Shown piece after piece: positions 17,188 through 57,016 of a stretch of 64,000 nucleotides of DNA (positions are counted from its first letter, which is position 1; the number at the start of each line of letters is the position of its first letter). Origin of the DNA: Candidatus Dormiibacterota bacterium (GTDB taxonomy: Bacteria; Chloroflexota; Dormibacteria; CF-121). The notes under the pieces are model-generated. The model was not told the origin of the DNA. It did not search any database and saw only the letters and a program-made list of their open reading frames with translations. A program made the translations under genes and the position numbers. The stretch spans positions 1,317-65,316 of the forward strand of contig DAIPYJ010000011.1 in the NCBI GenBank assembly GCA_036782775.1. The letters are read 5' to 3'.

Positions 17188-17190
17188 CCG

Positions 17191-39684: not shown

Positions 39685-39891
39685 TTAGCTGCGGGCTTGG
39701 CGCAACTTCTGTGTCTGGCGGATAGCGTCACGAAATTCAACGATCATCTCTTGATACGCCGTCACCTCAAGAGCCGCCACCGTCTGACCAGCGGCGACGA
39801 GCCGGCCTTTGATGGCGACGGACGCGAAGTAGGCGCCGTTGTAGTACGGCAGCAGATTCTCGAACTTGAACGCGGGATCGCCCCTAGCCAT
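39685..39891 (-). CDS. 68-aa hypothetical protein coupled to the selenoperoxiredoxin-like gene
   Basis: ATG overlaps the upstream stop region; ENLLPYYNGAYFASVAIK, helical. Confidence 0.6.
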   Translation of the reverse strand: MARGDPAFKFENLLPYYNGAYFASVAIKGRLVAAGQTVAALEVTAYQEMIVEFRDAIRQTQKLRQARS

Positions 39892-40342
39892 GGCTGAGCG
39901 CTTCCAGGACCACCGCATCTTTGGGCCGATCAGCGAAATCTCTGCCTTCGTATACATAGCGGATGAGGCCCGTCTGATCGGCAAGCACCAGCGCGGGCTT
40001 CGAGATCCGACCCGAGGAATCCCACAGCCCGAACCGCTTGATGACAACCTCACCCTCGGGATCACTCAAGAGGTCAAATGGCAGAAGGAGTTTGTCGATC
40101 ATGGCTTGGTTCTGCTCTGGCGAATCGACCGAGATCCCGTAGATCCGGATTTGCCGCTTTTGAAACTCTTCCCATTTCCTGGCGAAGCTGACCAGCTGCC
40201 CATTGCAGTAGGGTCACCAATCACCCCGATAGAAGATCACCAGGTTCGGCCCTGCAGGATCGGGCAATGACCTCTCAGATCCAGACTGATCTTGGAGGAC
40301 AAAGGTCGGCAGACGGCTTCCAGCAGAAAGGCCAGGCGACAT
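39884..40342 (-). CDS. AhpC/TSA peroxiredoxin-like protein with in-frame TGA (probable selenocysteine, U-P-Y-C)
   Basis: MSPGLSAGSRLPTFVLQDQSG...LVIFYRGDW-TGA(40216-40214)-PYCNGQL...YGISVDS...LLSDP...FADRP; 152 aa with readthrough. Confidence 0.88.
40181..40200 (-). promoter_or_regulatory. Candidate bacterial SECIS hairpin
   Basis: GGC-AGCT-GGUC-AGCT-UC-GCC; apical loop starts with GG, 20 nt after the UGA. Confidence 0.55.
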
Positions 40343-40410
40343 CGTCTTCGAGCATATCGGAGGCCACGCTCTTCATCCGGCCTTCACGTGGCCTTTAACG
40401 TTGGGACAGG

Positions 40411-40422
40411 CTGAGCGCTCAG
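40411..40422. promoter_or_regulatory. Perfect 12-bp palindrome between the divergent selenoprotein genes
   Basis: CTGAGCGCTCAG, followed by a further CTCAG half-site. Confidence 0.35.
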
Positions 40423-40470
40423 ACTCAGGGTAACGTCGTCCTGTAGTTGTGTACCGTGAAGACTGGCTCA

Positions 40471-41103
40471 ATGCGCCGGACGCGTGTCCGCTCCATCCTC
40501 TCGATTGCCGCCCCGGTGCTGCTGTTTGTCGGCATCTTTCTGGTGCGTGGTGGCTACTTTGGCGAACTCATCAATCGCGTCGGTGAGACAGGGTCACCGG
40601 TTTCCGTTCACCAGCTGAACGACATCGGCACCTTGCAGCAGGCATTCAATCACGATGCCGGTACGCCGCGGCTCATCCTGCTGGTCTCCCCCACTTGACC
40701 GGACTGCAATGCCGGCGCCCGTTGGGTGCAGCAGGAGATTTTGAAGAAACACCCGTCGGTTCCGCTGCGGGTTGAGGTCGTCTGGCTGCCGATGCTGACC
40801 GGCGACTCCGAGCAGTTGATCGATCGGCGCGTCCTCTCCGATCCACGAGTCAGCTATTACTGGGATCCCCATCGGATCGTCGGCCAGTGGTTCTCGAGCC
40901 ACGTGACGCAGCAACCGGGCATCACCTGGGATGCGTTCTTTCTCTACGGGGCCCAGGCAGGGTGGGACTCCACACCGGGTCCGCTGGTTGCCTCTGGCTC
41001 GAGCATCATCGGCAACACCGGCCAGCTCAGGGCCGGGTTCAATCAGATTCAGCCGTCAAGTAGCACGGCCGCTGTGCCGGGTCCATCCACGCCGCGCTCC
41101 TAG
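40471..41103 (+). CDS. Membrane-anchored thioredoxin-fold protein with in-frame TGA (probable selenocysteine, U-P-D-C)
   Basis: N-terminal TM helix; RLILLVSPT-TGA(40696-40698)-PDCNAGARWVQ...VVWLPML...YYWD...WDAFFLY; joins ORFs 40447-40698 and 40726-41103 in one frame (210 aa). Confidence 0.88.
40715..40729 (+). promoter_or_regulatory. Candidate bacterial SECIS hairpin
   Basis: GCGCCC-GUU-GGGUGC; G-led loop 22 nt after the UGA. Confidence 0.55.
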
Positions 41104-41109
41104 GCACGC

Positions 41110-41982
41110 GTGTCGCTTGGGATACGGCGGACCTGGCTCGGAATTGCAGCCGCGGCAGGCGCCCTCTTCCTGGCTGCGCTCGCCGCGTTCATTTTGGCCC
41201 CGGATGGCCATTTCGCGATCGGCGTCGAATCCGCTTCGTCAGCCGCTTCCGCGCTCGCCCAGCGTCCCAGTCAGTCGCTGCCTCGGATCTACGCCCTCTT
41301 CGCCGGCATGGTGGCCGCCTTCAATCCGTGCGGATTCGCCCTGTTACCGGCGTATCTAGGCCTTTACCTTCAGGATGACCGCGGCCGCCGTCGTTCGATC
41401 GCCACCACCATCTCGACCCCGCTCAAGGTATCGCTCAGCGTCACCGCCGCCTTCGTCGCGGTGTTCGGTCTGGTCGGGCTTGCGGTTGGCGTCGCGGGAA
41501 CAGCGATCTCATCAGTGCTTCCGCTGGTTGGGTTCATCATCGGCGTCGTCCTTATCGTAGTCGGCGGTGCGGTTCTGTCAGGCTGGAGCCTGGACACAGC
41601 CAGCACGACCAAGCTTGCCGACCGGCTCGGGCCGGCCGCCGGTCGCACCACCATGTCTGGATATTTCGCCTACGGGATCGCCTACGCGCTGGCATCCCTT
41701 GGCTGCACCTTGCCGGTCTTTCTCACCGTCCTTGGGCTTGCACCCCTTGCCGGCGGCCTGCTTGGCGGACTGCTGCAATTTCTGCTCTATGGCATCGGCA
41801 TGGCCGTCGTCCTGGCGGTACTGACGATCGCGGCCGCCCTCTTCAAGACCGAGCTCTTGCGCCGACTGCGTGGCGTCGGACGGATCATCGAGCCAGCCGG
41901 CGCCATCTTGCTTTTGCTCGTCGGCGCTTACGTGGTCTATTACTGGGTTACCCTTGGCGGACTCTTCCGTGGCACTGCCTGA
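41110..41982 (+). CDS. CcdA/DsbD-beta-like transmembrane thiol-disulfide electron carrier
   Basis: AFNPCGFALLPAY and ASLGCTLPVF, the two CcdA Cys motifs. Confidence 0.88.
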   Translation: MSLGIRRTWLGIAAAAGALFLAALAAFILAPDGHFAIGVESASSAASALAQRPSQSLPRIYALFAGMVAAFNPCGFALLPAYLGLYLQDDRGRRRSIATTISTPLKVSLSVTAAFVAVFGLVGLAVGVAGTAISSVLPLVGFIIGVVLIVVGGAVLSGWSLDTASTTKLADRLGPAAGRTTMSGYFAYGIAYALASLGCTLPVFLTVLGLAPLAGGLLGGLLQFLLYGIGMAVVLAVLTIAAALFKTELLRRLRGVGRIIEPAGAILLLLVGAYVVYYWVTLGGLFRGTA

Positions 41983-42676
41983 TCCCGAGAGCACGCCCGG
42001 TGTCGGTTTGCGGATTGAGATTCGCGGCCTGAGCCACGAGTACGGAACGCCTCACGCAAGGGTCCAGGCACTGACGGACATCTCATTCGAGGTGTCCGCT
42101 GGTGATTACGTAGCCCTCATGGGTCCGTCCGGCGCCGGCAAAAGCACCTTGCTGGCCCTCCTCGGTGGGCTCGACCGCCCTCAAGAGGGAACGTTGGCCA
42201 TCGACGGGCGCGATATGCGGGCGCTCAGTCGTGATCAGCTGGCCGAGTATCGGCGCACCACGGTTGGCTTCGTATTCCAGCACTTCGGGCTGGTCGACCT
42301 GCTGACCGCTGCCGAGAACGTCGAGCTGGCCTTGTCATTGGCGGGCGTGCCTCCGCACCAGCGGCGGCAACACGTCGGTGCCCTGCTGTCCTCCGTCGGC
42401 CTGCTCGAGCGACGCAACCACCGGCCATCGTCGCTCAGCGGCGGTGAGCGTCAACGGGTCGCGATCGCGCGGGCGCTCGCCAATGATCCACGGTTGCTCC
42501 TCGCGGACGAGCCGACTGGAAATCTCGATAGCAAGACCGCCGTCGGCGTCATGGACCTGCTCGAGAGCCTCCGGCGTGAGCGCGGTTGCACTCTCCTGGT
42601 GGTCACCCACAATCCGCTGGTCGCTGCTCGCGCCGATCGCCGCGTCGTCATCGATTCTGGCCGGATCGTCCTATGA
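41969..42676 (+). CDS. ABC ATPase (LolD/MacB-type)
   Basis: GPSGAGKST, LSGGERQRV, LLADEPTGNLD motifs. Confidence 0.95.
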   Translation: MALPDPESTPGVGLRIEIRGLSHEYGTPHARVQALTDISFEVSAGDYVALMGPSGAGKSTLLALLGGLDRPQEGTLAIDGRDMRALSRDQLAEYRRTTVGFVFQHFGLVDLLTAAENVELALSLAGVPPHQRRQHVGALLSSVGLLERRNHRPSSLSGGERQRVAIARALANDPRLLLADEPTGNLDSKTAVGVMDLLESLRRERGCTLLVVTHNPLVAARADRRVVIDSGRIVL

Positions 42677-44010
42677 GCTGGCGAGACGAACTGACGCTGG
42701 CGCTACGAAGCCTGCTGCGTCGCCCCGGACGGACGGCAATCACCCTGTTGGCGGTCGTTCTGGGGACCGGGCTGCTGGTCGCATTGGGAAGCGTCGGCGC
42801 GACGGCGGATTCCCGCATCGTCAGCCAGCTGAGCAAGGGTGGTCCGGCAGCGGCGATCAAGGTGGCGGCTGCCCTTCCAAACCCCGGGCAGCTCGACAGT
42901 GACAACCTTCAGGCCGGCGCTCCGAAGAACATCGACGACGCGGCGGTGGGAGCCATTCGGCGCGCGCCCTATGTCGCCTCGGTGGTACCGTTCCTGGCGG
43001 CTCCGGTGCTCGCCATTCCACCGCCGCAGGGTCTGTCCGCGGTACCAGGTACCAACGGTGAGACGCCCATCTTGCCGAATTGGATCTTCGACGCCATGGT
43101 TGGCACCGACCTGAGTCAGGTGAACAACCTCCCGATCACGGTCCTCGCCGGCCGGCTGCCGAGCCTCCATTCGCTGGACGAAGTCGCGGTGACGCAAGGG
43201 TACCTCGATCATCTTCATCTCGATGTCCACCATCCGGGAGTCGTGCTCGGGACGGAGATCGAGGTCGGAATGCCGCAATCGCACGTCATCAATGGCAACC
43301 TGCGGCGCCAGGCGCGCTGGATCAAGGCCCGGGTCGTCGGCGTCGTCGCCCAACAAGTCGGCGACGGCGAATTTCTGGTTCCCCTCGAGCAGGCGCAGAT
43401 CGCGCGGGGATGGGCGCTACAAGGGATCAGTGACGGCGATGATCCGTTGCCGGTTTCGCCTTATTCCGGCCTGGTGGTCGTGGCGGGCAGTCTCGACCAG
43501 GTGCATACAGTCCGCGCCGAGATCACCGTCCTCGGATATGCCACCAGTGCCCCCGAGCATCTGGTTGCATCCGTGCAGAAATATCTCCATGTGGTCGATA
43601 TCGTTCTCGGTGGCATCGGCACCATCGCCCTGGTGATCGCCTGCCTGGGGATCGCGAACGCTTTACTTGCCGCCGTCCGCGAACGCCGGCGGGAAATTGG
43701 GGTGCTGAAAGCCATCGGGGCACGCGACCAGGACATCCTTCGCTGGTTTCTCATCGAGGCGCTCGCGGTGGGAGCTCTGGGCGGCGCGATCGGCACGTTG
43801 CTCGGCGTCCTGGTTGCGGAAGGGCTTGGTCAATCCGTCAACCACTATCTCCTGACCCAGGGGTTGCAAAGCGTGTCGCTGGGCGAGGTCTCGCCGGCTC
43901 TGCTCGCCGCCGGTGTCCTTGGCACGGTCTTGCTCGCGTTGCTGGCTGCGGTCGCGCCGGCGCTACAGGCGGCGCGGCTGCCTGCCCTCGAGGCGGTGAG
44001 CGCGGCATGA
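42673..44010 (+). CDS. FtsX/MacB-type ABC permease
   Basis: N-terminal TM, large extracytoplasmic domain, ERRREIGVLKAIGA; ATGA overlap. Confidence 0.92.
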   Translation: MSWRDELTLALRSLLRRPGRTAITLLAVVLGTGLLVALGSVGATADSRIVSQLSKGGPAAAIKVAAALPNPGQLDSDNLQAGAPKNIDDAAVGAIRRAPYVASVVPFLAAPVLAIPPPQGLSAVPGTNGETPILPNWIFDAMVGTDLSQVNNLPITVLAGRLPSLHSLDEVAVTQGYLDHLHLDVHHPGVVLGTEIEVGMPQSHVINGNLRRQARWIKARVVGVVAQQVGDGEFLVPLEQAQIARGWALQGISDGDDPLPVSPYSGLVVVAGSLDQVHTVRAEITVLGYATSAPEHLVASVQKYLHVVDIVLGGIGTIALVIACLGIANALLAAVRERRREIGVLKAIGARDQDILRWFLIEALAVGALGGAIGTLLGVLVAEGLGQSVNHYLLTQGLQSVSLGEVSPALLAAGVLGTVLLALLAAVAPALQAARLPALEAVSAA

Positions 44011-44768
44011 GGTTGCGGCTGAGCTCGCTTTGCCTGCTGAGCCTCGTCCTGACGCTGGCGGCCTGCACATCGCTTACTCCAACGGGAGCCCGGCGGTCGA
44101 CGCCAAGTCCGAGACCCGCTGCCGTGGCTGCGCCCGTGGTCTATGCCGCGCTCGGGGCGAGCGAGACGGTTGGCGTCGGGGTGGGTGATCACCTCCGGCA
44201 GGCCTGGCCGCAGATCTTCTTCAACATCGCCTTGCCGGATTCGGCGGTCTTTTACAACTTCGGATTCCCTGGCGCGACGACCGCCGACGCGCTGCAGCTG
44301 GAACTGCCGGCGGCGATTGGCGTCCATCCGACGATCGTCACCATCTGGCTCAACGTCAATGATCTGATCGCGGGCGTTTCACCAGTCACCTACGAGACCG
44401 AGCTGCAGCAGTTAGTCCAGCGGTTGCGAGCCGCCGGTACTCGCGAGATTCTGATCGCGAATACCCCCTACCTCGATCGGCTCCCTGCGTATCTCAGCTG
44501 CAATGCGCCATCCGGGTCGCTCCACTGTCCCTTCCCCGCAGAGGCGCCGACCGCAGCCCAGCTCAACGCCATGGTCGACGCCTACAACGCCGGCATCCAA
44601 TGCGTAGCAGCCGAGGAATCCGCGGTTGTTGTCGACCTGCACACGCAGGGAGAATTGCCCGATCTCCATCCCGACTATCTCAGCGCGGATGGCCTTCACC
44701 CCAATGCCAGGGGTTACGCCGCGATCGCCTCGGCCTTCAAGGCGGCGCTGGCCGGGAAGACGCCTTAG
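44007..44768 (+). CDS. SGNH/GDSL hydrolase lipoprotein
   Basis: Lipobox LAAC; ALGASETVG, WLNVND, DGLHP motifs. Confidence 0.88.
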   Translation: MRLRLSSLCLLSLVLTLAACTSLTPTGARRSTPSPRPAAVAAPVVYAALGASETVGVGVGDHLRQAWPQIFFNIALPDSAVFYNFGFPGATTADALQLELPAAIGVHPTIVTIWLNVNDLIAGVSPVTYETELQQLVQRLRAAGTREILIANTPYLDRLPAYLSCNAPSGSLHCPFPAEAPTAAQLNAMVDAYNAGIQCVAAEESAVVVDLHTQGELPDLHPDYLSADGLHPNARGYAAIASAFKAALAGKTP

Positions 44769-44850
44769 ATTTCCTTAATAGCGCCTTCACGTTTCCGCCG
44801 TATATCGGTTTGGGATGGGAAAGGGATCGGCGAGCTTGAGCGCAACCGGC

Positions 44851-45339
44851 ATGCGCGAGTTGAGTCCGCTCTTCGGCCGGGCAATCGCCGCCCTTCGCAT
44901 CTGGTTCGGCATCGTCTTTCTCACCAACGGCCTTGCCAAGTTCATCCCCTCGATCGCGAAGACGCCCGTCGGATTCTTGATCGACCTCAATGGAGCCAAA
45001 GGCATCCTTATCTTCTACGCGCACCGGAATCCGGTCCCGCCCTATCGCAGCCTGGTCGACCAGCTGATCGCGCCCAACTGGAGCCTCTTTGGGCCCGCCG
45101 AGGCGGTGGTTGAGGTCGTCGTTGGCGTTCTGCTGATCGTCGGCCTGTTCGCGACGCTGGCTGCCCTGGTCGGTGCGCTGCTCCAACTACATCTGCAGTT
45201 CGCGTCGCTCTGGAGCAACCAGTGGGTCTTCGAGTACTCGGTCGAATGGGTGCCCTTGCTGGTGTTGGCCGCGATCCACGCCGGCCGCTGGTTCGGCCTC
45301 GATTCGCGTCGTCCGAGGGCGTCCGGATGGCTGGGGTGA
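44851..45339 (+). CDS. DoxX/TQO small-subunit-like membrane protein
   Basis: LRIWFGIVFLTNGLAK, EVVVGVLLIVGL, GRWFGLDS motifs. Start could be as early as 44815. Confidence 0.8.
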   Translation: MRELSPLFGRAIAALRIWFGIVFLTNGLAKFIPSIAKTPVGFLIDLNGAKGILIFYAHRNPVPPYRSLVDQLIAPNWSLFGPAEAVVEVVVGVLLIVGLFATLAALVGALLQLHLQFASLWSNQWVFEYSVEWVPLLVLAAIHAGRWFGLDSRRPRASGWLG

Positions 45340-46016
45340 GCCGGGTCGCCGTGATCATCCCGGCGCTCAACGAGGCCGGGGCCATCGGCGATGTTGTCGC
45401 CGAGATAAGGGCGACGGTCGATGCCGAGGTGATCGTCGTCGACAACGGCAGTCAGGATCAGACCGCCACAGTGGCGCGCCGAGCCGGTGCCGTGGTCGTG
45501 ACCTGTCCGGAGCGCGGGTATGGCAAGGCCTGCCTCCGGGGAATCGCCGAGGCGCGCGGGAATGATGTCCTGGTCTTCATCGATGGCGACGGCAGCATGC
45601 CGGCGGTGGACATCCCCGCTTTGGTGGGGCCCATCCTCGATGGCCGAGCGGACATCGTCTGCGGCGCCCGGCGCGCTGACCCTGGCACGATGCCAGCGCA
45701 CCAGCGATGGGGTAACCGCCTTTCGATGGCGCTGCTGCGCTCGCTCTACGGCGTCAGGCTCTCTGACCTCGGTCCCTTCCGCGCGGTTCGGGCGACCACC
45801 CTCGCGAGTCTCGCCATGCGGGCGTCGAAGTTTGCCTGGCCGGCGGAAATGCTGGCCCGGGCGGCAAAAGTGCAGGCGCGGATCATCGAGGTGCCGGTCG
45901 GCTACCGCGCACGTGCAGCCGGCCGGTCGAAGGTTGGCGGTACCCTTCGCGGATCGATCGGGGCCGGCATGGGAATCGTCGGATCGCTGGCCTGGGTGCG
46001 GATGTTACCGCGGTGA
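45336..46016 (+). CDS. Glycosyltransferase family 2 (polyprenol-phosphate glycosyltransferase-like)
   Basis: IIPALNE, VDNGSQD, RGYGKAC, FIDGDGS, DLGPFRA motifs. Confidence 0.92.
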   Translation: MSRVAVIIPALNEAGAIGDVVAEIRATVDAEVIVVDNGSQDQTATVARRAGAVVVTCPERGYGKACLRGIAEARGNDVLVFIDGDGSMPAVDIPALVGPILDGRADIVCGARRADPGTMPAHQRWGNRLSMALLRSLYGVRLSDLGPFRAVRATTLASLAMRASKFAWPAEMLARAAKVQARIIEVPVGYRARAAGRSKVGGTLRGSIGAGMGIVGSLAWVRMLPR

Positions 46017-46696
46017 GCGACAGCCCATTTCGGAGCTGGTCATCCGACGAATGGCTGATCCTCCTGGCGCGCTGGCCGCAGCCGGGTGTCGGCAAGTCGC
46101 GCCTGGCGGCCGGCATTGGGGATGAGCAGGCGTATCGGCTCGAACAGGCCTTCCTGATGGACACCATCGGATGGGCTTCGCTGGCGCCGGCGCACCTGAT
46201 CACGTTCACCCCGGCTGGAGCTGCAGCGCAATTTCGCCGCTGCGCCCCGCGCGCGCATTTGCGGCGCCAGGCGGAGGGAGACCTGGGCGTCCGCATTCAT
46301 CAGGCGTTCGTGGATGCCTTCAGTCTCGGAGCCCGTCGGGCCGTCATCGTCGGCAGCGACAGCCCGAATCTTCCATATGCGATCGTCGATTCCTGCAGGT
46401 CGGGGCTGCCGACGGCGGACGCGATGATCGCGCCGACCAGCGACGGCGGCTTCTGCGCCCTCGGCCTCACCCGGCCGGCACCCGAACTGTTTGTGGGGGT
46501 TGCCTGGAGCACGCCAGACGTTTGCGCGCAGGTCATGGCGAATGCCCGTGCCGCCGGGCTCGAGATCCGCTCAACCGAACCCTGGTACGACGTCGACGAC
46601 GTGCTGGGTCTCAATCGCCTGCGCTTCGATCTGTCCCTCGACGGTGAATTCGCCCCCAATACCAGCGCAACCCTGGCCCGAATCAACCGGAAGTAA
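46013..46696 (+). CDS. DUF2064 / TIGR04282-type transferase (CofC/MobA-like fold)
   Basis: GVGKSRLAA, QAEGDLGVRI, IVGSDSP, PTSDGGF, WYDVDD motifs. Confidence 0.88.
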   Translation: MSDSPFRSWSSDEWLILLARWPQPGVGKSRLAAGIGDEQAYRLEQAFLMDTIGWASLAPAHLITFTPAGAAAQFRRCAPRAHLRRQAEGDLGVRIHQAFVDAFSLGARRAVIVGSDSPNLPYAIVDSCRSGLPTADAMIAPTSDGGFCALGLTRPAPELFVGVAWSTPDVCAQVMANARAAGLEIRSTEPWYDVDDVLGLNRLRFDLSLDGEFAPNTSATLARINRK

Positions 46697-46706
46697 GGAG
46701 GCACAG

Positions 46707-47855: not shown

Positions 47856-47864
47856 GGTCGATCC

Positions 47865-48677
47865 ATGGCAAAGCCGTTGGTGGTTGGCGCGGTCGCCTAT
47901 ACCGCGAACGTCGTCCCCATCTGGGAGGGGATCCGCGAGTACTTCCGCGAGAGCGACGCCCCCATGGACTTTGTGCTTTTTTCTAACTACGAGCGCCAGG
48001 TCGATGCCTTACTCGAAGGGCAGATCGAGATCGCCTGGAACACCAACCTGGCGTGGGTCCGATGCCTGGGGCTCACGTCGGGCACCTGCCAGGCGCTGGC
48101 GATGCGCGACGCCGACCTCGTGTTCAAATCCGTCTTCGTCTCGCGCGCCGGCGCCGGGTTGCGCGGACTCGCGTCGCTGCGAGGACGACGATTGGCGCTC
48201 GGATCGCGCGACTCGGCGCAAGCCGCGATCCTCCCCCTCTATTTCTTGCATCACGCCGGCCTGGTCGACGGCGCCGTCACCGTGAGGCGGTTCGACACCG
48301 ACGTGGGCAAGCACGGCGATACCGGTCGCAGCGAGCTCGATGCCATCCGTGCCGTGTTGAGTGACCAGGCCGATGCGGCAGCCATCGGCATTAGCACCTG
48401 GGAAAGCGTCGGGAAGGGCGAGCTTGCCGATAGAGCACTGGAAGCCTTCTGGGAATCGCCCGAGTACTGCCACTGCAACTTCACCGCGCTTCAGTCCCTG
48501 GACCATGAGCGGAGCGAGGCCTGGGTCAGTCATCTGCTTCGGATGGACTGGAACATTCCCGCGCATCGCCGCATCCTCGAGCTCGAAGGCCTCAAGGCGT
48601 GGGTCCGTCCGCAGCTGGCGGGCTACGAGCCGCTGCTGGCGGCGGTCAAAGAGCAGCAGATCCCGTTGCGATGGTGA
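47865..48677 (+). CDS. PhnD/SsuA solute-binding-fold protein without signal peptide (Rv1680-like)
   Basis: Starts MAKPLVVGAVAY; YERQVDALL, IAWNTNLAW, GKHGDT, YCHCNFT motifs. Confidence 0.82.
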   Translation: MAKPLVVGAVAYTANVVPIWEGIREYFRESDAPMDFVLFSNYERQVDALLEGQIEIAWNTNLAWVRCLGLTSGTCQALAMRDADLVFKSVFVSRAGAGLRGLASLRGRRLALGSRDSAQAAILPLYFLHHAGLVDGAVTVRRFDTDVGKHGDTGRSELDAIRAVLSDQADAAAIGISTWESVGKGELADRALEAFWESPEYCHCNFTALQSLDHERSEAWVSHLLRMDWNIPAHRRILELEGLKAWVRPQLAGYEPLLAAVKEQQIPLRW

Positions 48678-49642
48678 TTCTCGACCTCATCGACGCGTTG
48701 CAGCCATTGGCGGACGGAGCTGTGGCCAGGGTTCCGCTGGATTCGGCGGCGGACATCGAGAGGGTCCGTACCTGGTGCGCGCGCAGCGGCAACACCGTGG
48801 TGCGCGTCAACGATGACTGGGTCGAGGTGCGGCGAGGACGTTTGCGGGAGCCGGCGGGGCTGGAAACCATCCCGGCACGGCTCTGGCTCTATACGAACTT
48901 CGATTGCAACCTGGCCTGTGATTACTGTTGTGTCCGCTCGTCCCCAACAGCGAATCGGCGCGCTCTCGGATTGGAGCGCATCGGGCCGCTGGTCGGGGAA
49001 GCGCCGGGGGCCGGCGTGACCGAGCTCTTCCTCACCGGCGGCGAACCCTTCATCCTGCCCGACATCGACGCCATCGTGCGCAGCTGCGTAACAGTGCTGC
49101 CCACGACCCTGCTGACCAACGGCATGCTGTTTCAACGGGGCCGCCGGCTCGAAGCCTTGCGCCGGATGCCGCGCGATGGTTTCGCGCTTCAGATCAGCCT
49201 CGATTCCCCGACGCCGGAACTCCACGACCGCCATCGCGGTCAGGGCTCGTGGGAGAAGGCGATTGCCGGCATCCGCCTCGCAAGGGCCGAAGGCTTTCGG
49301 GTACGCGTGGCAACCACCCTGACCGAAGAGGGGTCGATCGAGTCGGAGCTCCGCGGTTTTCTTGATGAGCTCGGCATCCGGCGCGACGACCAGGTGATTC
49401 GGCCGCAGGCCCGTCGCGGGCTGGCACAAAAGGGTGTCGTGCTGACGGTGCCCGCCCTCATCCCCGAAGTCACGGTGACCGCCGACGGTGTCTACTGGCA
49501 CCCGGTCGCCGCCGACGACGATGACATGCTGGTGACCCGCTCGCTCTTTCCACTGGCCGACGCCGTGAACCAGGTGCGACATCGGCATCTCGAGCAGCAG
49601 CAGAAAGTGGAGGCGCTGGCGGAGGCGTTCGTATGCGCTTAG
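48671..49642 (+). CDS. Radical SAM protein with short TusA/SirA-like N-terminal domain (MoeX/Rv1681-like)
   Basis: CNLACDYC (CxxxCxxC), TGGEP, TNG, QISLDS; N-terminal TWCARSGNTVV; ends FVCA. Confidence 0.9.
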   Translation: MVILDLIDALQPLADGAVARVPLDSAADIERVRTWCARSGNTVVRVNDDWVEVRRGRLREPAGLETIPARLWLYTNFDCNLACDYCCVRSSPTANRRALGLERIGPLVGEAPGAGVTELFLTGGEPFILPDIDAIVRSCVTVLPTTLLTNGMLFQRGRRLEALRRMPRDGFALQISLDSPTPELHDRHRGQGSWEKAIAGIRLARAEGFRVRVATTLTEEGSIESELRGFLDELGIRRDDQVIRPQARRGLAQKGVVLTVPALIPEVTVTADGVYWHPVAADDDDMLVTRSLFPLADAVNQVRHRHLEQQQKVEALAEAFVCA

Positions 49643-51054
49643 TCGCCCGCGACGAGATCGCACGGACGGAACGGATTGCGACAAGCGAGATCGCGCAGCC
49701 CAGGCCTCACCAAGTGCTCATCTGGGCGCTCGCGCTGGGAGCATCGTTTGCCTATTTCGGATTGGCGCTGGTCCGCCATTTGAGCTTTCACAGCGCCGCC
49801 TACGACCTGGGCTTTTTCGACCAGGTTCTCTGGAACGCCTCACGCGGCCATGGGCTTCGATCGACCTTCATCCCCTATGTCTTTTTTGGCGAGCATTTTG
49901 AACCCGCCCTGCTGCTCTTCATCCCGATCTATCGCGTCGTCGCGTCGCCCCTCTGGCTGCTGGGCGCCCAGTCGATTGCGCTTGGGCTCGCCGCGGTCCC
50001 GCTGCACGCCATCGCCCGGCGCCTGCTCGATTTGCAACGAGCGTGGCTCGTGGTCGGCGCATACCTGCTGCAACTCGGAATCGCGCGCGCCGTCGCGAGT
50101 GATTTCCACACGGAGACACTCGCCGTGCCCTTTGTCTTCCTTGCCATCCTCTTCGCGCTCCAGCGACGCTGGCATTGGTTTGCGCTGTTTGCCATCATTC
50201 CCATGCTCGCCAAGGAAGACGGCGTCCTGGTAACGATCGGCATCGCCATCCTGGCGCTCATCATGACGCGCCAGCGCATCAGCCTCGTGCCGGCAATCGC
50301 CGCGCTGGGGTACGGCATCGTCGTGCTCTTCTGGGCCATGCCCGTTATCCGACACGGCGCACCGGGAGACCTGGTCCTTCGTTATGCGTACCTGGGATCG
50401 ACGCCCGAGCAGGTGGTGCTCCATACGCTGACGCGACCTTGGCTCTGGCTGGAGAACTTGGCGAGCTCCCCGGCGTTGCCGGCTCTCCTGCTCTTGCTCG
50501 CCGCCGTCGGATTTCTTCCCATCTTCCGGCCAGCCGCGATGGGGGCCGCGTTGCTGCCCCTGATCCCGGCGTTCCTATCCACCGATCCGTATCAGGCCGG
50601 ACTGCGGCTGCAATATTCGATCCCCGCGGTGCCCTTGTTGATGATCGCCGCGCTGCTCGGCTGGCAGCGCCTGCCCGCGATGAGCGGCGGCGTGATGGTC
50701 ATACTCGGTGCCGCAGCGACCTGGGTCGTGCTGGGGCCGGTCCTACCGCGCCTCGGGACCGACGTGCCGGGTCTCGGGCGCGCCGCTGACGTCACTCGTA
50801 TCTTGCGTCTCATCCCGTCGGGCGATGAGGTCGGGGCGAGTTCGAATCTCGTGCCCCATCTGTCGGAGCGCCCGTCGATCTGGGAGTTTCCCGCCGGGTT
50901 CGGCGCCCGGTGGATTGTCATCGATCGGTCAGCGAGTGTCTCGCAGGAAAGTCAGGCGCATGGGTACGCCGCGGCAATTGCGCGGTTGCCCGCGGCCGGC
51001 TACACGATGGAGGCAGAAGCGGACGGCGTGACCGTCTGGCGCAAGTCGCCATGA
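49633..51054 (+). CDS. DUF2079 membrane protein (predicted GT-C-like glycosyltransferase)
   Basis: YDLGFFDQVLWN, GEHFEP, DFH, KED motifs; about 10 TM. Confidence 0.85.
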   Translation: MRLVARDEIARTERIATSEIAQPRPHQVLIWALALGASFAYFGLALVRHLSFHSAAYDLGFFDQVLWNASRGHGLRSTFIPYVFFGEHFEPALLLFIPIYRVVASPLWLLGAQSIALGLAAVPLHAIARRLLDLQRAWLVVGAYLLQLGIARAVASDFHTETLAVPFVFLAILFALQRRWHWFALFAIIPMLAKEDGVLVTIGIAILALIMTRQRISLVPAIAALGYGIVVLFWAMPVIRHGAPGDLVLRYAYLGSTPEQVVLHTLTRPWLWLENLASSPALPALLLLLAAVGFLPIFRPAAMGAALLPLIPAFLSTDPYQAGLRLQYSIPAVPLLMIAALLGWQRLPAMSGGVMVILGAAATWVVLGPVLPRLGTDVPGLGRAADVTRILRLIPSGDEVGASSNLVPHLSERPSIWEFPAGFGARWIVIDRSASVSQESQAHGYAAAIARLPAAGYTMEAEADGVTVWRKSP

Positions 51055-52163
51055 CACGAGTCCTTGTGACTGGCGGCGCCGGATTCATCGGCTCGCATCT
51101 GGTTGACGCCCTGCTGACGCGAGGATTCGACGTCCGCGTCCTCGACAACCTCGATCCCCAGGCACACGAAGGCGGTCGCGCGCGATTCCTTTCGAGCGAT
51201 GCCGAGTTGATGGTCGGCGATCTACGCGACCGCGACGCCGTTCGCCGCGCCCTGAACGGGATGGAGCTGGTCTTCCACCAGGCGGGCATGGTGGGAAACG
51301 GCCAGTCGATGTACGAGATCCATCGCTATGTCGAGGTCAACGGCGGCGGCACCGCCATCCTCATGGAAGAGATCGTGGCGCGTCGTGATCGCATCCGCCG
51401 GGTGATTGCGGCGTCGTCGATGGTGGTTTACGGCGAGGGCGCCTACTGGTGTGCTCAGCACGGCGAGTGCCGGGGAACGCGATCGGCGGAAGACCTGCGG
51501 GCGCGCCGGTGGGAGCCCCTTTGCCAGATCTGCGGCGCCGCGCTGACGCCGAGGCCGACAAATGAAGAGTGGCCCCTGCAGCCGACCTCGCCGTATGCGA
51601 TTTCAAAGCGCGATTCTGAGGAGATCACGCTGGTCAGTGCCCGTGCGCACGGCGTGGACGCGGTGGCGTTGCGCTACCTCAACGTCTACGGTCCGCGCCA
51701 GGCGCTTGGCAACCCATACACGGGGGTCGCTGCCGTCTTCTGCGCCCGATTGCTCAGTGGCCGAGCGCCGCTCATCTTCGAGGACGGCGGCCAGCGACGC
51801 GACCTGGTTCATGTCTCGGATATCGTGCGCGCCAATCTCCTCGCCATGGACTCGCCATTGGCCTCCGGTTATCCGATCAACATTGGGACCGGAACCTCGG
51901 TTACCGTCCTGGAGCTCGCCCAAACGTTAGCGCGAGGATTGGGTATCGATCACGCCCCCGAAATCTCCGGCCTCTACCGCGCCGGGGACATTCGGCACTG
52001 CTATGCGGATATCAGCCGTGCCGAACGGCTTCTCGGGTTCAGCGCCGAGGCTGATCGCGACGAGTGCCTGAGCGAGCTCGCCCAATGGGTTGCTACGCAG
52101 CCGTCAGTGGATCGCTCGGAGGGAGCGCTTGCCGCACTCAAGGACCGGGGGCTGATCCGCTGA
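51051..52163 (+). CDS. NAD-dependent NDP-sugar epimerase/dehydratase
   Basis: TGGAGFIGSHL, YAISK, RYLNVYGPRQ, RDLVHVSD motifs. Confidence 0.93.
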   Translation: MTRVLVTGGAGFIGSHLVDALLTRGFDVRVLDNLDPQAHEGGRARFLSSDAELMVGDLRDRDAVRRALNGMELVFHQAGMVGNGQSMYEIHRYVEVNGGGTAILMEEIVARRDRIRRVIAASSMVVYGEGAYWCAQHGECRGTRSAEDLRARRWEPLCQICGAALTPRPTNEEWPLQPTSPYAISKRDSEEITLVSARAHGVDAVALRYLNVYGPRQALGNPYTGVAAVFCARLLSGRAPLIFEDGGQRRDLVHVSDIVRANLLAMDSPLASGYPINIGTGTSVTVLELAQTLARGLGIDHAPEISGLYRAGDIRHCYADISRAERLLGFSAEADRDECLSELAQWVATQPSVDRSEGALAALKDRGLIR

Positions 52164-52168
52164 TCGAT

Positions 52169-53164
52169 GTGGCTCACCCAGAATCGACTGGCTGGCGATT
52201 GGCGATGGCGGTGACGCTGGCGCTCTCGCTCGCAGCCTGCGGCGCATCATCAGCACCACGCGTCGGTGAGCCGGCAGCGCCGGCAACGGTTACCGCCTCA
52301 CCCGCCGGAAGGCTGGTCGCGGTCGGCGCAGGGCCGGAGGGGATCGCCGTCGACCCCGAAGCCGGCCTGATCGCGGTCGCCGTCCGCTCGCCCGCCGCAA
52401 TCGTGGTGCTCGATCGCAGCGGATCAACCCTTCGTCGGGTGGCGCTACCCTCCTCCGCGCGCCATCTTCGTTTCAGCACATCGGGCTCGCTGTTGGTCCC
52501 GGCTGAGCAGGCCCAGCAGTTGATCCAGGTCGACGTGACGAGCGGACGCATCGTGAGCTCTACGCCTGTTGGGCACCAGCCGCATGATGCCGTTCCGTTC
52601 GGCAGCAGGGTTTTCGTCACCAACGAGTTCTCCGACACGCTGTCCGTCATCGAGGCCGTGCAGGTGGTGGCAACGATCCCTGCGCCGAAGCAGCCCGGTG
52701 GCATCGCGGCATCGACCAGCGTGCTGGCGGTGCTCGGGGTGCGATCACACACCGTGCGCTTCATCGATGCCGGTTCCCTGGCGACGATCGCGACGCTGCC
52801 CGCCGGGGCCGGGCCAACGCATGTCGTGGGCGATGGCGAGGGCCGATTCTTCGTCACCGACACGGTTGGCAATGCCCTGCTGACCTATGCCTCGTCTCCG
52901 GCGCCGCATCTGGTAAGCCGGCGGACGGTGCAGGGAACGCCCTATGGCATCGCCCTTGACACCGTCCATGCCCGACTGTTCCTGACGCTGACGGCTCGTA
53001 ACCAGGCAGTCGAATACCACCTAGTCGGGGACACCCTCGCCGAGGTCGCTCGATTTTCCACCCCACGACAGCCGAACACCGTCGCGGCCGACCCCGTCAG
53101 CGGGACGGTCTTCGTCACCGGTACCGCCGACGGTGTCGTGCAGATCATGTCAAGCTTCAACTGA
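52169..53164 (+). CDS. YncE/YVTN beta-propeller lipoprotein
   Basis: Lipobox LAAC; repeated P-x-GIA / PHD blades, FVTN. Confidence 0.82.
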   Translation: MAHPESTGWRLAMAVTLALSLAACGASSAPRVGEPAAPATVTASPAGRLVAVGAGPEGIAVDPEAGLIAVAVRSPAAIVVLDRSGSTLRRVALPSSARHLRFSTSGSLLVPAEQAQQLIQVDVTSGRIVSSTPVGHQPHDAVPFGSRVFVTNEFSDTLSVIEAVQVVATIPAPKQPGGIAASTSVLAVLGVRSHTVRFIDAGSLATIATLPAGAGPTHVVGDGEGRFFVTDTVGNALLTYASSPAPHLVSRRTVQGTPYGIALDTVHARLFLTLTARNQAVEYHLVGDTLAEVARFSTPRQPNTVAADPVSGTVFVTGTADGVVQIMSSFN

Positions 53165-53832
53165 TGGCTACCCGCGTGCTTCTCATCGACGACGATCCGA
53201 AGATCGTTTCACTGCTGCAGCGTGGCCTCGCCTTCGAGGGCTTCGAGGTGACCACCGCACCCGACGGCACCGACGGATTGAACGCGGCGCGGACCACTCG
53301 GCCACAGCTGGTATTGCTCGACATCGCGATGCCCGAGCCGGACGGATTCGAAGTCTGCCGCCGGCTGCGGCTTGCCACCGACGTGCCGGTCATCATGCTG
53401 ACCGCCCGCGACGACGTGGCCGATAAGGTGAGCGCGCTGAATCTCGGCGCGGACGACTATGTGGCCAAGCCGTTCGCCTTTGACGAGCTGCTGGCCCGGA
53501 TTCGCGCCGTGCTCCGCCGCCATCAGGATGGCGATGAGCCGCTCACCTACCTCGACCTTGTCGTCGATCCCCGGACGCGCGAGGCCCAGCGCGCCGGCCG
53601 GGTCATCGACTTGACCGGCCGCGAGTTCGACCTGCTGCTCTTCTTCATGCGTCATCCGCGGCAGGTGCTGACCCGCCAGCAGCTGATCGACCGCGTCTGG
53701 GGGTTTGACGAATCGCCGGAGACAAACGCGCTCGACGTCCATATCGGCCACCTGCGGCAAAAGCTCGAAGGCGCGGACGGCACCCGTTTGATCCAGACCA
53801 TCCGCGGCATCGGCTATGCGCTTCGCGGGTAA
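53164..53832 (+). CDS. OmpR/MprA-type response regulator
   Basis: LIDDD, LLDIAMP, DDYVAKPF, IQTIRGIGY motifs. Confidence 0.95.
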   Translation: MATRVLLIDDDPKIVSLLQRGLAFEGFEVTTAPDGTDGLNAARTTRPQLVLLDIAMPEPDGFEVCRRLRLATDVPVIMLTARDDVADKVSALNLGADDYVAKPFAFDELLARIRAVLRRHQDGDEPLTYLDLVVDPRTREAQRAGRVIDLTGREFDLLLFFMRHPRQVLTRQQLIDRVWGFDESPETNALDVHIGHLRQKLEGADGTRLIQTIRGIGYALRG

Positions 53833-55228
53833 GGCGCTCGGCGTCGATGTTCGGTTGGCGCTCTGGTTCAGCGTCATCATGGGCGCGGTCCTCGCCGCCC
53901 TGAGCCTGACTGTCTTCCAGCTCACCAAGGACAGCCTGCTCCGCGAAGCCGATCAGGATGTCCGCCAACGCGCCACTCTCATCGCGGCGGCACAACCGAT
54001 CGAAAGCTCGCAAATCCTGATGCCGCGCACCGATGTCTTCAGCGCCCCAGATATCTTTGTCCAGATCGTCGATCCAAACGGCCACGTGCTGAGCACCTCG
54101 AGCAATCTGTCGGGACACGTTCTTCCTTTTATTCCCTCAGCGATCCGGGCCGGCAATGTCACCGAGCAGCAAGTCAGTGGCCGGATGCTCATCCTCTGTG
54201 GCCGACCGATCACCTCTGGCGGCATGCTCAAGGGCTACGTGCTCGTCGCACGCTCGCCGCAAACGATTTATGTCGCCCTGGATCGGCTGCGTTCGATTCT
54301 CTATCCAGGCGCTGCGCTCGCGCTGATCCTGGCTGGAATCGCCGGGTGGCTCCTGGTGCGCAGGGCACTCGGACCGCTGCGGCGGATTGGCAGCGCCGCC
54401 GCCCGGATCGCCGCGACCCGGGATCACACCCAACGCATTGGATATACCGGACCACCCGATGAGATTGGCCGCGTCGCGCAGACGATCGACGGCATGCTCA
54501 AGTCACTAGAGGAAGCGCACGCACAGGTCCAGGCGTCGCATGACGCACAGAAACGGTTTCTGGCTGAGATCTCCCACGAACTCCGCACGCCGTTGACCAT
54601 CATGCTTTCCTCGTTGGACCTGCTCGTCAGGACTGGACGGTCCGACCCCGAATTCGCCAGGCGCGCGATCGCCGATATTCGAGTCGAGGCCGACCGAATG
54701 GCGCGGATGGTCAGCCATCTCCTGATCATGGCGCGTTCCGACGCGGGCGCGCCCGCGGCTCCACATCGCCCGGTGATCGTGGTCGACGTCTTGACTGATG
54801 CATGCCGGCAACTCAGCCAGACAAACGGACGCTTGCGCTATCGGAACCTCGAGCGGATCGACGATGCCGTCGTCGATGGCGACAGCGACTATCTGAAGCA
54901 GCTGTTTCTGATCCTGCTCGATAACGCCTTCAAATACACACCGCCCGATGGGCATGTCGAAGTCAGCGGCACCTTCAACGACGGAACCGTCGCCATCGCT
55001 GTCGCCGACGAGGGGATGGGCATTCCTCCCGAGGATTTGCCGCATCTATTCGAGCGCTTCTACCGCGGGAAAAATGCGCACAGCCAGGGACTCGGCTTAG
55101 GGCTTGCCATCGCGCGACATATCGCGATGCAACACGGGGGGCGAATCGACGCTGAAAGCAAGCCAGGCAGTGGTAGCCGGTTTACGGTATCACTGCCGCT
55201 CGCGACGCCCGTAGAGAGCTTAGGCTAA
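53816..55228 (+). CDS. HAMP sensor histidine kinase
   Basis: Two TM, HAMP, SHELRTPL, DNAFKY, GLGLGL motifs. Confidence 0.95.
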   Translation: MRFAGKALGVDVRLALWFSVIMGAVLAALSLTVFQLTKDSLLREADQDVRQRATLIAAAQPIESSQILMPRTDVFSAPDIFVQIVDPNGHVLSTSSNLSGHVLPFIPSAIRAGNVTEQQVSGRMLILCGRPITSGGMLKGYVLVARSPQTIYVALDRLRSILYPGAALALILAGIAGWLLVRRALGPLRRIGSAAARIAATRDHTQRIGYTGPPDEIGRVAQTIDGMLKSLEEAHAQVQASHDAQKRFLAEISHELRTPLTIMLSSLDLLVRTGRSDPEFARRAIADIRVEADRMARMVSHLLIMARSDAGAPAAPHRPVIVVDVLTDACRQLSQTNGRLRYRNLERIDDAVVDGDSDYLKQLFLILLDNAFKYTPPDGHVEVSGTFNDGTVAIAVADEGMGIPPEDLPHLFERFYRGKNAHSQGLGLGLAIARHIAMQHGGRIDAESKPGSGSRFTVSLPLATPVESLG

Positions 55229-55250
55229 GCGGGCCCCACGCCTGGCTGCG

Positions 55251-55910
55251 ATGCTTAGATGGGGACCAATGAGCTGGCGTATCCGGTCGACCTGGCGCCG
55301 CTCGTGGGCGCTGCTGGTTGCGATCGGGCTGATCGCCAGTCTCGGCCTCCTTGGATTGACGGCGTACAACTGGGTCGAGATTCCGTTCCTCAAGTTCGAG
55401 CTTGCTGCCGGCCAGTGCAAGTTCGGTCCACCCTTAGCCGGCGTCTACTTCCCCAGCCGCCTCCATGTGCTGAATCGCTGCATGACGGTGAGCGGCGTCG
55501 TCGATTGTTTCAAGGTCGAGCCTGATGGTGACGTCCACCTGCGCGTCCGGTTGGATCCTCAGTTCTCGGGGCTGCTGAAACCGGCCAACGCGCTGCAGAC
55601 CTGCGCCGACCATTTAGGCCCACACATCGTCGTCGAGATCATTCCGCAGCACCCCGAAGGTCTTCTCTTCAGAAATAACGATGCCGACGCCGGAGGGTTC
55701 ATCGATCCACAAATGCCCGCTCCCGGCGAGCACGTCACGGTCACCGGGCCCTACGTCATCGACACCAACATCCTTCACCGTGTCCTCTACCAGGGGAGGG
55801 TCGCTGAGAATTGGGCAGAGATTCATCCCGCCTGGGCGATCCGGGTCGATCAACCAGTCAGCCCTGCCCAGCCGAACAAGTTCGGCCCGGCGTTTGGAGA
55901 ATCTGGTTGA
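55251..55910 (+). CDS. Membrane-anchored hypothetical protein, OB-fold-like
   Basis: N-terminal TM; EPDGDVH, VVEIIP, WAEIHP motifs. Confidence 0.65.
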   Translation: MLRWGPMSWRIRSTWRRSWALLVAIGLIASLGLLGLTAYNWVEIPFLKFELAAGQCKFGPPLAGVYFPSRLHVLNRCMTVSGVVDCFKVEPDGDVHLRVRLDPQFSGLLKPANALQTCADHLGPHIVVEIIPQHPEGLLFRNNDADAGGFIDPQMPAPGEHVTVTGPYVIDTNILHRVLYQGRVAENWAEIHPAWAIRVDQPVSPAQPNKFGPAFGESG

Positions 55911-56878: not shown

Positions 56879-57016
56879 CGTCTTAATAGTGGCGGATGGC
56901 AATCGGCGGCCATGATGGCTGATCGGAGGCATGCAAGTCGTCGGTCAGCTAGCTCAAGATCAGCCTTGCGTTGCAGCTTGCCGCAGAAGCCGGTGGCGTC
57001 GTATGTTTGGCAGCAA

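Follow-up and report, generated by a model that had tools for sequence, protein, structure and literature searches.

In Mycobacterium tuberculosis, the Rv1676-Rv1681 run comprises Rv1676, dsbF (Rv1677), Rv1678, fadE16 (Rv1679), Rv1680 and moeX (Rv1681), that is, a DoxX-type gene upstream of genes for an acyl-CoA dehydrogenase (ACAD)-fold protein, a substrate-binding protein (SBP)-fold protein and an enzyme of the radical S-adenosylmethionine (SAM) type, with the thiol redoxin genes Rv1676 and dsbF presumably adjoining this cassette. The cassette is conserved across Actinomycetota and has been catalogued by NCBI curators. The "molybdopterin synthesis" label of MoeX is a name inherited via likeness to MoaA, and the literature searched held no functional study of Rv1679-Rv1681, moeX or fadE16. 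Here, we analyzed an expanded arrangement of this kind at positions 39685-55910 of a 64,000-nucleotide stretch of contig DAIPYJ010000011.1 from Candidatus Dormiibacterota (in the following, the window). The block encodes the same ACAD, SBP and radical SAM families, as judged by curated equivalog or exception cut-offs, likewise with a DoxX-type gene upstream. Unlike in the M. tuberculosis locus, genes for a family 2 glycosyltransferase (GT2) and a DUF2064 protein lie between the DoxX and ACAD genes, genes for a DUF2079 protein and an epimerase follow the radical SAM gene, the same run also holds genes for CcdA, an ATP-binding cassette (ABC) exporter, an SGNH hydrolase and a two-component system, and the redoxins use selenocysteine (Sec).

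The additional genes recall a second group of described systems, PpgS/Rv3779, ArnC/ArnT, GtrB/GtrC and CsbB/YfhO, which, like the window, combine a DPM1-type GT2 with a polytopic transferase and a sugar-nucleotide short-chain dehydrogenase/reductase (SDR). The working principle of these lipid-carrier glycosylation pairs is established, and the two-component control in the window resembles PmrAB-Arn. Compared to these pairs, the window has a DUF2064 protein in addition, and we saw no flippase of the GtrA type in it. Moreover, the role of polytopic partner is taken by different families, namely DUF2079, GT87 or an unclassified membrane protein family (family X; see below).

We tentatively favor reading the block as a lineage-specific mosaic, in which 16 genes at 40471-55228 probably form one operon next to a divergent two-gene unit, and in which four modules are assembled that each recur elsewhere. 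Judged by their sequences, these modules would be an extracytoplasmic thiol-reducing relay, TrxU-CcdA, with a divergently encoded cytoplasmic peroxiredoxin (Prx)-like UxxC selenoprotein, PrxU; a MacB-type ABC exporter with an SGNH lipoprotein; the Rv1678-Rv1681 cassette, composed of DoxX, an ACAD-fold protein lacking the catalytic Glu, a cytoplasmic PhnD-like binder and the radical SAM enzyme; and a two-component-controlled, polyprenyl-phosphate-sugar glycosylation module made up of SDR, GT2, DUF2064, DUF2079, a propeller lipoprotein, regulator and kinase. New are the expanded arrangement, the recurrent pairing of the cassette with glycosylation genes and a largely Sec-containing thioredoxin-fold family, while the three cassette families and TIGR04282 had already been catalogued.

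The MoeX cassette and its gene neighborhood

All three enzymatic and binding components of the cassette exceed the cut-offs of the Rv1679, Rv1680 and Rv1681 families (Table 1), bearing out a likeness that an earlier note, made from the sequence alone, had pointed out. The radical SAM enzyme and the SBP-fold protein align with their models from end to end (positions 1-326 of 326 and 1-268 of 268, respectively); the ACAD-fold protein barely passes its threshold, with a Streptomyces orthologue scoring 611.2 bits. In the ACAD-fold protein, Ala takes the place of the catalytic Glu (VMAPTADV aligned with IYEGTSEV of butyryl-CoA dehydrogenase), a VMAP(T/S)(A/S)D motif is present in 67 of 67 orthologues examined, and the alternative Glu position on helix G appears, by eye, to be Trp or Phe. 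The exchange of the catalytic Glu in this protein and in these 67 orthologues renders classical acyl-CoA dehydrogenation unlikely. The SBP-fold protein carries no signal peptide that could be read from its sequence and finds its nearest PDB relatives among phosphonate- and phosphite-binding proteins, which points to a protein that binds an anionic, phosphorylated ligand in the cytoplasm.

The radical SAM enzyme contains the cluster motif CNLACDYCC (CxxxCxxC) and, outside of it, three invariant Cys residues (C36, C139 and the penultimate C322). An AlphaFold2 (AF2) model (pLDDT 83) lies nearest to BlsE, SuiB, SkfB, MoaA, DesII and AbmM, a mix of nucleotide or sugar-nucleotide enzymes and peptide maturases. 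A TusA-type sulfur relay on this enzyme was considered and rejected as a sign of sulfur insertion: the Pfam TusA match of the N-terminal domain stays below the cut-off (19 versus 28.6 bits), and, by our reading of the alignment, its conserved Cys aligns with the non-catalytic Cys of TusA and CPxP is lacking.

For a forward test of gene neighborhood, a radical SAM alignment was scanned against one genome per GTDB species, yielding 464 relatives, the best 80 of which, all from Actinomycetota and 55-62% identical, were used together with one close relative of the window, locus L001. Within 10 kb of the ACAD-SBP-radical SAM triad, tblastn matched the SBP gene at 78, the ACAD gene at 69 and the DoxX gene at 52 of these 81 loci; independent clustering of neighbors, filtered for higher GC content at third than at first codon positions against antisense shadow open reading frames (ORFs) of high-GC DNA, gave DoxX at 60 of 84 loci. 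DoxX thus stands ahead of the triad at most loci. GT2 was matched at 21 loci (20 of the 80 actinobacterial ones), DUF2064 at 20 (19/80), the epimerase at 15 (14/80), the response regulator at 10, CcdA at 9 (8/80) and the histidine kinase at 6. FtsX, SGNH, DUF2079 and TrxU were matched in L001 only among the 81 loci, and the propeller in L001 and one further locus (L067).

Of the co-occurrence that the earlier note had proposed to check, the association of GT2 and DUF2064, with the epimerase and a polytopic protein in part of the cases, holds at about 20 of 80 actinobacterial triad loci, while DUF2079 accompanies it in L001 alone. A link between cassette and glycosylation genes therefore appears real but facultative, and it takes several forms: the glycosylation genes are divergent from, convergent with, upstream of, downstream of or interleaved with the triad, in Streptomyces, Glycomyces, Nonomuraea, Pseudarthrobacter, PHSC20C1 and several metagenome-assembled genomes. 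In the window, both sets are interleaved in the order DoxX, GT2-DUF2064, ACAD-SBP-radical SAM, DUF2079-epimerase. Compared with L083, whose radical SAM enzyme is 63-64% identical and which has an uninterrupted DoxX-ACAD-SBP-radical SAM-propeller order with a DUF929 gene upstream, the GT2-DUF2064 and DUF2079-epimerase pairs look like insertions.

Redoxins, too, recur beside the triad. At all eight actinobacterial loci with CcdA, the adjacent gene encodes a lipoprotein with a WCPKC, WCPIC or WCSIC motif, i.e. a DsbE/F-like protein, and this pair parallels dsbF (Rv1677) of M. tuberculosis; TrxU itself was matched beside the triad in L001 only, and PrxU was otherwise matched at two loci, weakly (27-28% identity). 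The complete 17-gene set, which had been proposed as a recurrent unit, is kept by close relatives only: L001, a 56-kb metagenome contig, retains the block from PrxU to the kinase with 58-84% protein identity and both TGA codons, in different flanks. L085 keeps TrxU-CcdA-ABC-FtsX-SGNH, and its permease and that of L001 are 80-82% identical to the one in the window. The 13 other matches to the ABC ATPase (27-45% identity) are generic paralogues.

Three strains carry two ACAD-SBP-radical SAM copies each, Pseudarthrobacter sp. O4 (L058/L074), Streptomyces sp. IBSNAI002 (L013/L019) and Streptomyces sp. 21So2-11 (L012/L039), with GT2-DUF2064 beside one copy in the former and beside both in the two Streptomyces. 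In metagenome contig L082, rhodanese, ArsR-rhodanese and PNP_UDP_1 nucleoside phosphorylase genes flank the triad (417-2529, 6524-7315). The ACAD gene of L084 (2713-3835) is apparently in two overlapping pieces, possibly due to a frameshift or an assembly error. GH15, MFS sugar transporter and LCP genes were rejected as functional neighbors, their recurrence looking like lineage synteny; a GH15/trehalase-like gene lies at 23505-25322 (+) of the window, and members of this family also turn up near the triad, at a distance of up to 10 kb, in six actinobacterial loci (for example, L005 3959-5863 and L049 4941-7064).

Two redoxins with in-frame TGA codons

The two divergent U-x-x-C genes described in the earlier note were recovered, each with an in-frame TGA that is conserved in relatives. 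With Cys substituted for Sec, PrxU matches AhpC-TSA (E=1.4e-27) in a domain alignment that crosses the TGA, and this codon is kept in L001. In alignments with peroxiredoxins, the Sec takes the place of Thr in T-x-x-C, and the Cys after it coincides with the peroxidatic Cys, which marks PrxU as a predicted Prx-like UxxC thiol oxidoreductase; a CxxC-type alignment is obtained with ResA and thioredoxin-family proteins. Neither a transmembrane (TM) segment nor a signal sequence could be read from the protein. PrxU shares the AhpC/TSA domain and UxxC motif with the SelL-related and PrxU Prx-like UxxC/CxxC proteins; unlike in those, its Sec does not occupy the position of the peroxidatic Cys, and it stays below both family cut-offs (SelL_rel_redox, 39.8 versus 120 bits; PrxU model, 32.1 versus 270 bits).

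TrxU has a membrane anchor at its N-terminus and gave no match in Pfam or NCBIfam scans. Its TGA is kept in L001, L085 and L086/87, with the protein conserved on either side. Homologue P0123 is a Cys form (SPTCPVC), relatives P0130-P0134 contain SPTC or SPRC motifs, i.e. Cys at the Sec position, and P0139 has Trp (TGG) there. On this comparative evidence, both TGA codons appear to be real. An AF2 model of P0123 (pLDDT 92) adopts a thioredoxin fold, with M. tuberculosis DsbE (1LU4) as top PDB match, followed by ResA, StoA, M. tuberculosis DsbF (3IOS) and CcmG. TrxU thus shares with ResA, CcmG, TlpA and M. tuberculosis DsbE/DsbF the predicted fold, an N-terminal anchor, adjacency to CcdA and CcdA fusions (a CcdA-type membrane domain is naturally fused to the TrxU-family domain in P0150 and P0151), but has Sec for the first Cys of CxxC and belongs to a family without Pfam or NCBIfam model, about half of whose representatives look like Sec forms. 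TrxU and M. tuberculosis DsbF are members of different sequence families, with about 14% identity in a structural alignment. The neighboring CcdA exceeds the DsbD_2 cut-off (29.1 versus 24.9 bits) and falls just short of that for DsbD_TM (26.1 versus 27.1 bits).

An exhaustive HMMER search with the Cys form P0123 as query placed 1195 representative clusters in the TrxU family (E<=1e-3). Among the best 150 matches (P0129-P0278), about 70 are, by our reading of the match table, fragments of 110-125 residues that start just past the first Cys. These fragments, about half of the best 150, appear to be the signature of gene callers halting at UGA. The family, lacking a curated model and with about half of its database entries apparently truncated in this manner, merits a family model and corrected annotation. 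Relatives P0148 and P0168 are multi-domain proteins, apparently with heavy-metal-associated domains.

A candidate hairpin begins about 9-16 nt past the UGA of TrxU and 8 nt past that of PrxU, where a longer fold includes the UGA. Synonymous sites over the hairpin are conserved at 4/7 versus 18/75 (p = 0.08), which is suggestive only.

The block had been read as an expanded system that makes use of selenium and produces a sugar with S, Se or As in it, akin to arsenosugar-type loci (ArsS/TIGR04167, TIGR04282 and TIGR04283), and that installs this sugar at the cell surface. Indeed, as foreseen, the score of the DUF2064 protein exceeds the TIGR04282 cut-off, and its gene, as in arsenosugar-type loci, lies beside a GT2 and a radical SAM gene; the SBP-fold protein bears a distant resemblance to a family of putative selenate-binding proteins (79 bits, cut-off 250), and two selenoproteins flank the operon. 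However, the remaining arsenosugar markers failed: the radical SAM enzyme scores 35.2 versus 300 bits for ArsS, over the radical SAM core only, and the GT2 reaches 56.2 versus 182 bits for TIGR04283, over its N-terminal third only. Since the one is not ArsS and the other not a TIGR04283 protein, we find no evidence for such a sugar. Moreover, in those ORFs of the window that were scanned, we came across neither an arsenic methyltransferase (ArsM) nor selenophosphate synthetase nor Sec machinery, and the radical SAM enzyme, given its TusA-like domain without the CPxP Cys, offers no sign of sulfur transfer by that route. Sec occurs solely in the redox-active sites of the two redoxins, which are both accessory and have Cys-form homologues, so that nothing beyond them speaks for a "selenium-using version" of the cassette. 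We regard the proposed S/Se/As sugar as highly improbable.

The glycosylation module and a proposed scheme for the whole block

The best NCBIfam matches of the GT2 are AglJ, Dol-P-hexose transferase and PpgS; the PpgS match (NF058614, 78.3 versus 370 bits) is below cut-off and signifies a resemblance of type only. Across loci, the GT2 partner of DUF2064 is consistently of this Dol-P-hexose/AglJ/PpgS type. The DUF2064 protein matches PDB entry 3CGX (1.2e-24) and is weakly similar to CofC/FbiD-type guanylyltransferases; its actinobacterial counterparts score 105-123 bits against TIGR04282, as partial sequences. The DUF2079 protein weakly matches a cell-surface glycopolymer formation family (NF046093), and a profile search against the PDB gave nothing useful; we take its clan to be GT-C. 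In the literature searched, we found no functional work on DUF2064, TIGR04282 or DUF2079, and neither these nor the cassette families are covered by the selenoprotein preprint of Haft.

Near the triad, the large polytopic protein accompanying the glycosylation genes is DUF2079 in the window, GT87 at five loci (plus two fragments; Streptomyces) and family X at ten (L084, L014, L035, L044, L046, L049, L057, L069, L071 and L076). Family X proteins, of about 458 residues (exemplar L084 5657-7033), are encoded next to a radical SAM or GT2 gene; in L035, their gene overlaps the stop codon of the radical SAM gene, which it abuts in L084, L071 and L044. No member has a significant Pfam match (best E 0.05-0.3), and no homology to DUF2079 was detected (hhalign probability 0.1%).

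The lipoprotein that had been called YncE-like has the expected lipobox, whereas its YNCE match, like those to NHL and SGL, is below cut-off, leaving a weak beta-propeller assignment (TIGR02276 repeat, 44.7 versus 27.85 bits). Propeller homologues are encoded directly 3' of the radical SAM gene in L083 (53% identity), about 1 kb downstream of it in L067 (42%), and beside GT87, at a distance of about 2 kb or less from DUF2064, in L153 and L165. The ABC ATPase has LolD, DevA and MacB as best NCBIfam matches, each below its cut-off.

The combination of GT2 and DUF2064 with the cassette could also point to a redox cofactor like mycofactocin or F420, a small molecule bearing sugar, with DoxX as membrane partner. 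In mycofactocin biosynthesis, the GT2 MftF decorates a cofactor derived from the radical SAM enzyme MftC, which would provide a precedent; the CofC/FbiD-like character of DUF2064 fits such a route, and flavoprotein, radical SAM enzyme and small binding protein together look like a cofactor-maturation set. However, no precursor-peptide gene was seen, Pfam and NCBIfam matches of the radical SAM enzyme include no SPASM or twitch extension, the GT2 is nearest to polyprenyl-phosphate-sugar synthases, and the polytopic membrane transferase and the lipoproteins indicate the envelope as site of action. A cofactor of this kind is thus quite improbable.

In a reverse test, a metagenome scan was seeded with actinobacterial DUF2064 proteins, and neighbors were counted over the 31 loci that spanned 8 kb or more. 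Of these, 29 had GT2, 21 the epimerase, 16 the response regulator, 14 the histidine kinase, 9 GT87 and 4 family X, with one or the other of the latter two at 13; regulator and kinase, which the earlier note had assigned to the block as a control system of its own, thus belong with the glycosylation module. One locus (L135) contained cassette genes (radical SAM and DoxX), and the glycosylation/sensor module therefore appears to be usually free-standing. L139 has the module linked to SGNH-FtsX-ABC genes whose products are 46/52/60% identical to those of the window.

Returning to the mosaic, the analysis establishes family memberships, gene packing, conserved Sec codons, the modeled thioredoxin fold, CcdA fusions and how often the modules lie together. 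The following scheme infers in addition that the genes are transcribed together, which way electrons flow, what the substrate is and that cassette and glycosylation module are chemically linked. The kinase would sense an envelope signal, and the regulator would turn the operon on. CcdA would hand electrons across the membrane to the membrane-anchored, DsbE/F-like TrxU, and the relay might thereby hold extracytoplasmic Cys residues of envelope proteins, or of the target, in the reduced state. The glycosylation module would make a lipid-linked sugar and, outside the membrane, pass the sugar on to an acceptor in the envelope. The cassette may perform radical- and flavin-based tailoring of the module's sugar nucleotide or phosphorylated lipid carrier, with the SBP-fold protein holding the anionic substrate meanwhile and DoxX linking the ACAD-fold flavoprotein to the quinone pool. 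ABC exporter and SGNH lipoprotein would serve export or turnover.

Several observations weigh against this scheme and the mosaic behind it. About three quarters of the triad loci have no glycosylation genes within 10 kb; together with the single cassette-bearing locus in the reverse test, this is what makes the link between both modules facultative, and their connection may be one of shared regulation rather than chemistry. DUF2079, GT87 and family X are mutually without detectable homology, and a glycosyltransferase label for all three is therefore an assumption. The structural matches of the radical SAM model are generic (TMq 0.4-0.5). As to Sec, the hairpins, as candidate Sec insertion sequence (SECIS) elements, are no more stable than dinucleotide shuffles (Z = -1.9 to +0.6) and their seven consensus pairs are invariant, so that covariation is nil; the Sec call for PrxU and TrxU rests on comparative ORF evidence for this reason. 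In addition, no tRNA-Sec was found within the 64-kb window and no sel genes among the ORFs scanned.

The same counts bear on the possibility that the modules are biochemically independent and have been gathered as a co-expressed envelope/redox-stress island, with a cassette unrelated to glycosylation that acts, for example, in thiol/sulfur or quinone-linked redox chemistry. Consistent with this idea, the glycosylation/sensor module normally does without the cassette, and the steadiest neighbors of the triad are DoxX and redoxins (CcdA with a DsbE/F-like protein; rhodanese in L082; DUF929 in L083) rather than glycosylation genes. In M. tuberculosis, too, redoxin genes presumably border the cassette. 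In strain H37Rv, Rv1676, dsbF and fadE16 fall together under bedaquiline. However, roughly 25% of the triad loci have the rare DUF2064 module nearby, in several different arrangements, for which a rough chance estimate would give well under 1 per 80 loci of 20 kb, and in the window, cassette and glycosylation genes are interleaved with overlapping stop and start codons. We therefore consider full independence of the modules somewhat unlikely.

In its most far-reaching form, the mosaic would imply both that the MoeX cassette serves for radical-SAM/flavin tailoring of the sugar nucleotide, or the phosphorylated lipid carrier, in two-component-controlled envelope glycosylation by GT2, DUF2064 and polytopic transferase, and that TrxU represents a large, mostly Sec-containing, unannotated family of CcdA-dependent extracytoplasmic reductases. 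This joint proposition is unlikely as it stands; if true, it would for the first time place a cassette that is conserved in M. tuberculosis in a functional setting. With the cassette beside sensor-controlled, lipid-linked glycosylation genes at about a quarter of the loci, a genetic and lipidomic test is feasible in Streptomyces and Pseudarthrobacter.

Gene layout and surroundings

ORF listing, translation and Pfam/NCBIfam scans placed all genes of the earlier list on the expected strand and in the expected order (Table 1).

Table 1. Genes of the studied block, with window positions and supporting matches (scores in bits versus cut-off)
Feature	Position	Strand	Evidence and remarks
Conserved 68-residue ORF	39685..39891	-	Overlaps stop of PrxU gene by 8 nt; kept in L001; probably translationally coupled to Prx-like gene
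PrxU, cytoplasmic Prx-like (AhpC/TSA) selenoprotein, 152 codons, W-U-P-Y-C	39884..40342	-	TGA 40214-40216
TrxU, membrane-anchored thioredoxin-fold selenoprotein, S-P-T-U-P-D-C	40471..41103	+	TGA 40696-40698
CcdA/DsbD-type transmembrane electron carrier	41110..41982	+	DsbD_2 match; FNPCG and LGCTLPV motifs
ABC ATPase, MacB/LolD/FtsE type	41969..42676	+	ABC_tran E=2.3e-36
FtsX/MacB-type permease with periplasmic core domain	42673..44010	+	FtsX and MacB_PCD matches
SGNH/GDSL hydrolase lipoprotein	44007..44768	+	Lipase_GDSL_2 E=7.2e-27; lipobox LTLAAC
DoxX-family small membrane protein (Rv1678 position)	44815..45339	+	DoxX 30.2 vs 23.6
GT2 glycosyltransferase, polyprenyl-phosphate-sugar synthase type	45327..46016	+	Glycos_transf_2 E=1.3e-21
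DUF2064/TIGR04282 nucleotidyl-transferase-like protein	46013..46696	+	TIGR04282 154.6 vs 134
Rv1679-family ACAD-fold flavoprotein without canonical catalytic Glu	46707..47855	+	NF049984 608.7 vs 600
Rv1680-family SBP-fold (PhnD-like) protein, predicted cytoplasmic	47865..48677	+	NF049985 458.3 vs 400
Rv1681 (MoeX)-family radical SAM enzyme, N-terminal TusA-like domain	48671..49642	+	NF049973 477.7 vs 380
DUF2079 polytopic membrane protein, putative GT-C-type transferase	49633..51054	+	DUF2079 E=3.9e-64, full length
NAD-dependent sugar-nucleotide epimerase/dehydratase (SDR)	51051..52163	+	Epimerase E=1.5e-48; GalE/LegB-type matches below cut-offs
Beta-propeller lipoprotein	52169..53164	+	Weak NHL/SGL/YNCE matches; TIGR02276 repeat; lipobox LSLAAC
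OmpR-family response regulator	53164..53832	+	Response_reg and Trans_reg_C matches
Sensor histidine kinase	53816..55228	+	Two TM segments, HAMP, HisKA, HATPase_c
219-residue protein	55251..55910	+	Outside all Pfam/NCBIfam models; probably not in conserved block

Along the plus-strand run, successive genes are separated by +6, -14, -4, -4, +46, -13, -4, +10, +9, -7, -10, -4, +5, -1, -17 and +22 nt (5' to 3'). These values depend on the chosen start codons, which were based on candidate starts and gene lengths in L001; the start of the ABC ATPase, for instance, was picked to fit the L001 length and the overlap. The widest gap, given earlier as about 80 nt, is the 46-nt gap 3' of the SGNH gene. 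Scanning of the plus run revealed no terminator-like or promoter-like sites in the intergenic gaps, with site counts at or below shuffled expectation, which is compatible with a single transcript and no proof of it.

Two boundaries of the block differ from the earlier description. On the minus strand, the selenoprotein gene ends at 39884, and 39685-39891 is the separate small ORF, whose sequence begins MARGDPAFKFENLLPYYNG and for which a Pfam scan was empty. At the other end, no Pfam or NCBIfam match lies behind the OB-fold label once attached to the 55251-55910 product, and L001 has an unrelated gene, for 324 residues, in the same place.

Rfam and tRNA scans of the entire window found nothing. 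Beyond the small ORF, at about 39450-39560 (-), a short, stop-terminated, receiver-domain-like fragment (KVLIVDDQADIRLLLATRLGLERDITVVAEASNGAG) seems to be what is left of a response regulator gene. Metal-handling genes are located on either side of the block, one for an ArsP_1-type permease with two YHS domains at 33044-34609 (-) and one for a CDF cation-efflux protein at 55925-56932 (-). Further upstream, positions 5914-22867 harbor a dense signaling cluster, with HD-GYP/GGDEF/GAF proteins, two adenylate-cyclase-domain proteins (one with AAA_16 and TPR), a PAS-GAF histidine kinase and a sigma-70 factor. Among named sigma-70 matches, the best are to a 'Ca. Acidoferrum' metagenome-assembled genome (73%) and to Gaiellaceae (about 55%). 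At the beginning of the window (1-5728, -), an ORF of 1909 codons that runs off the window start has an unusual codon-position GC content of 0.56/0.55/0.74.

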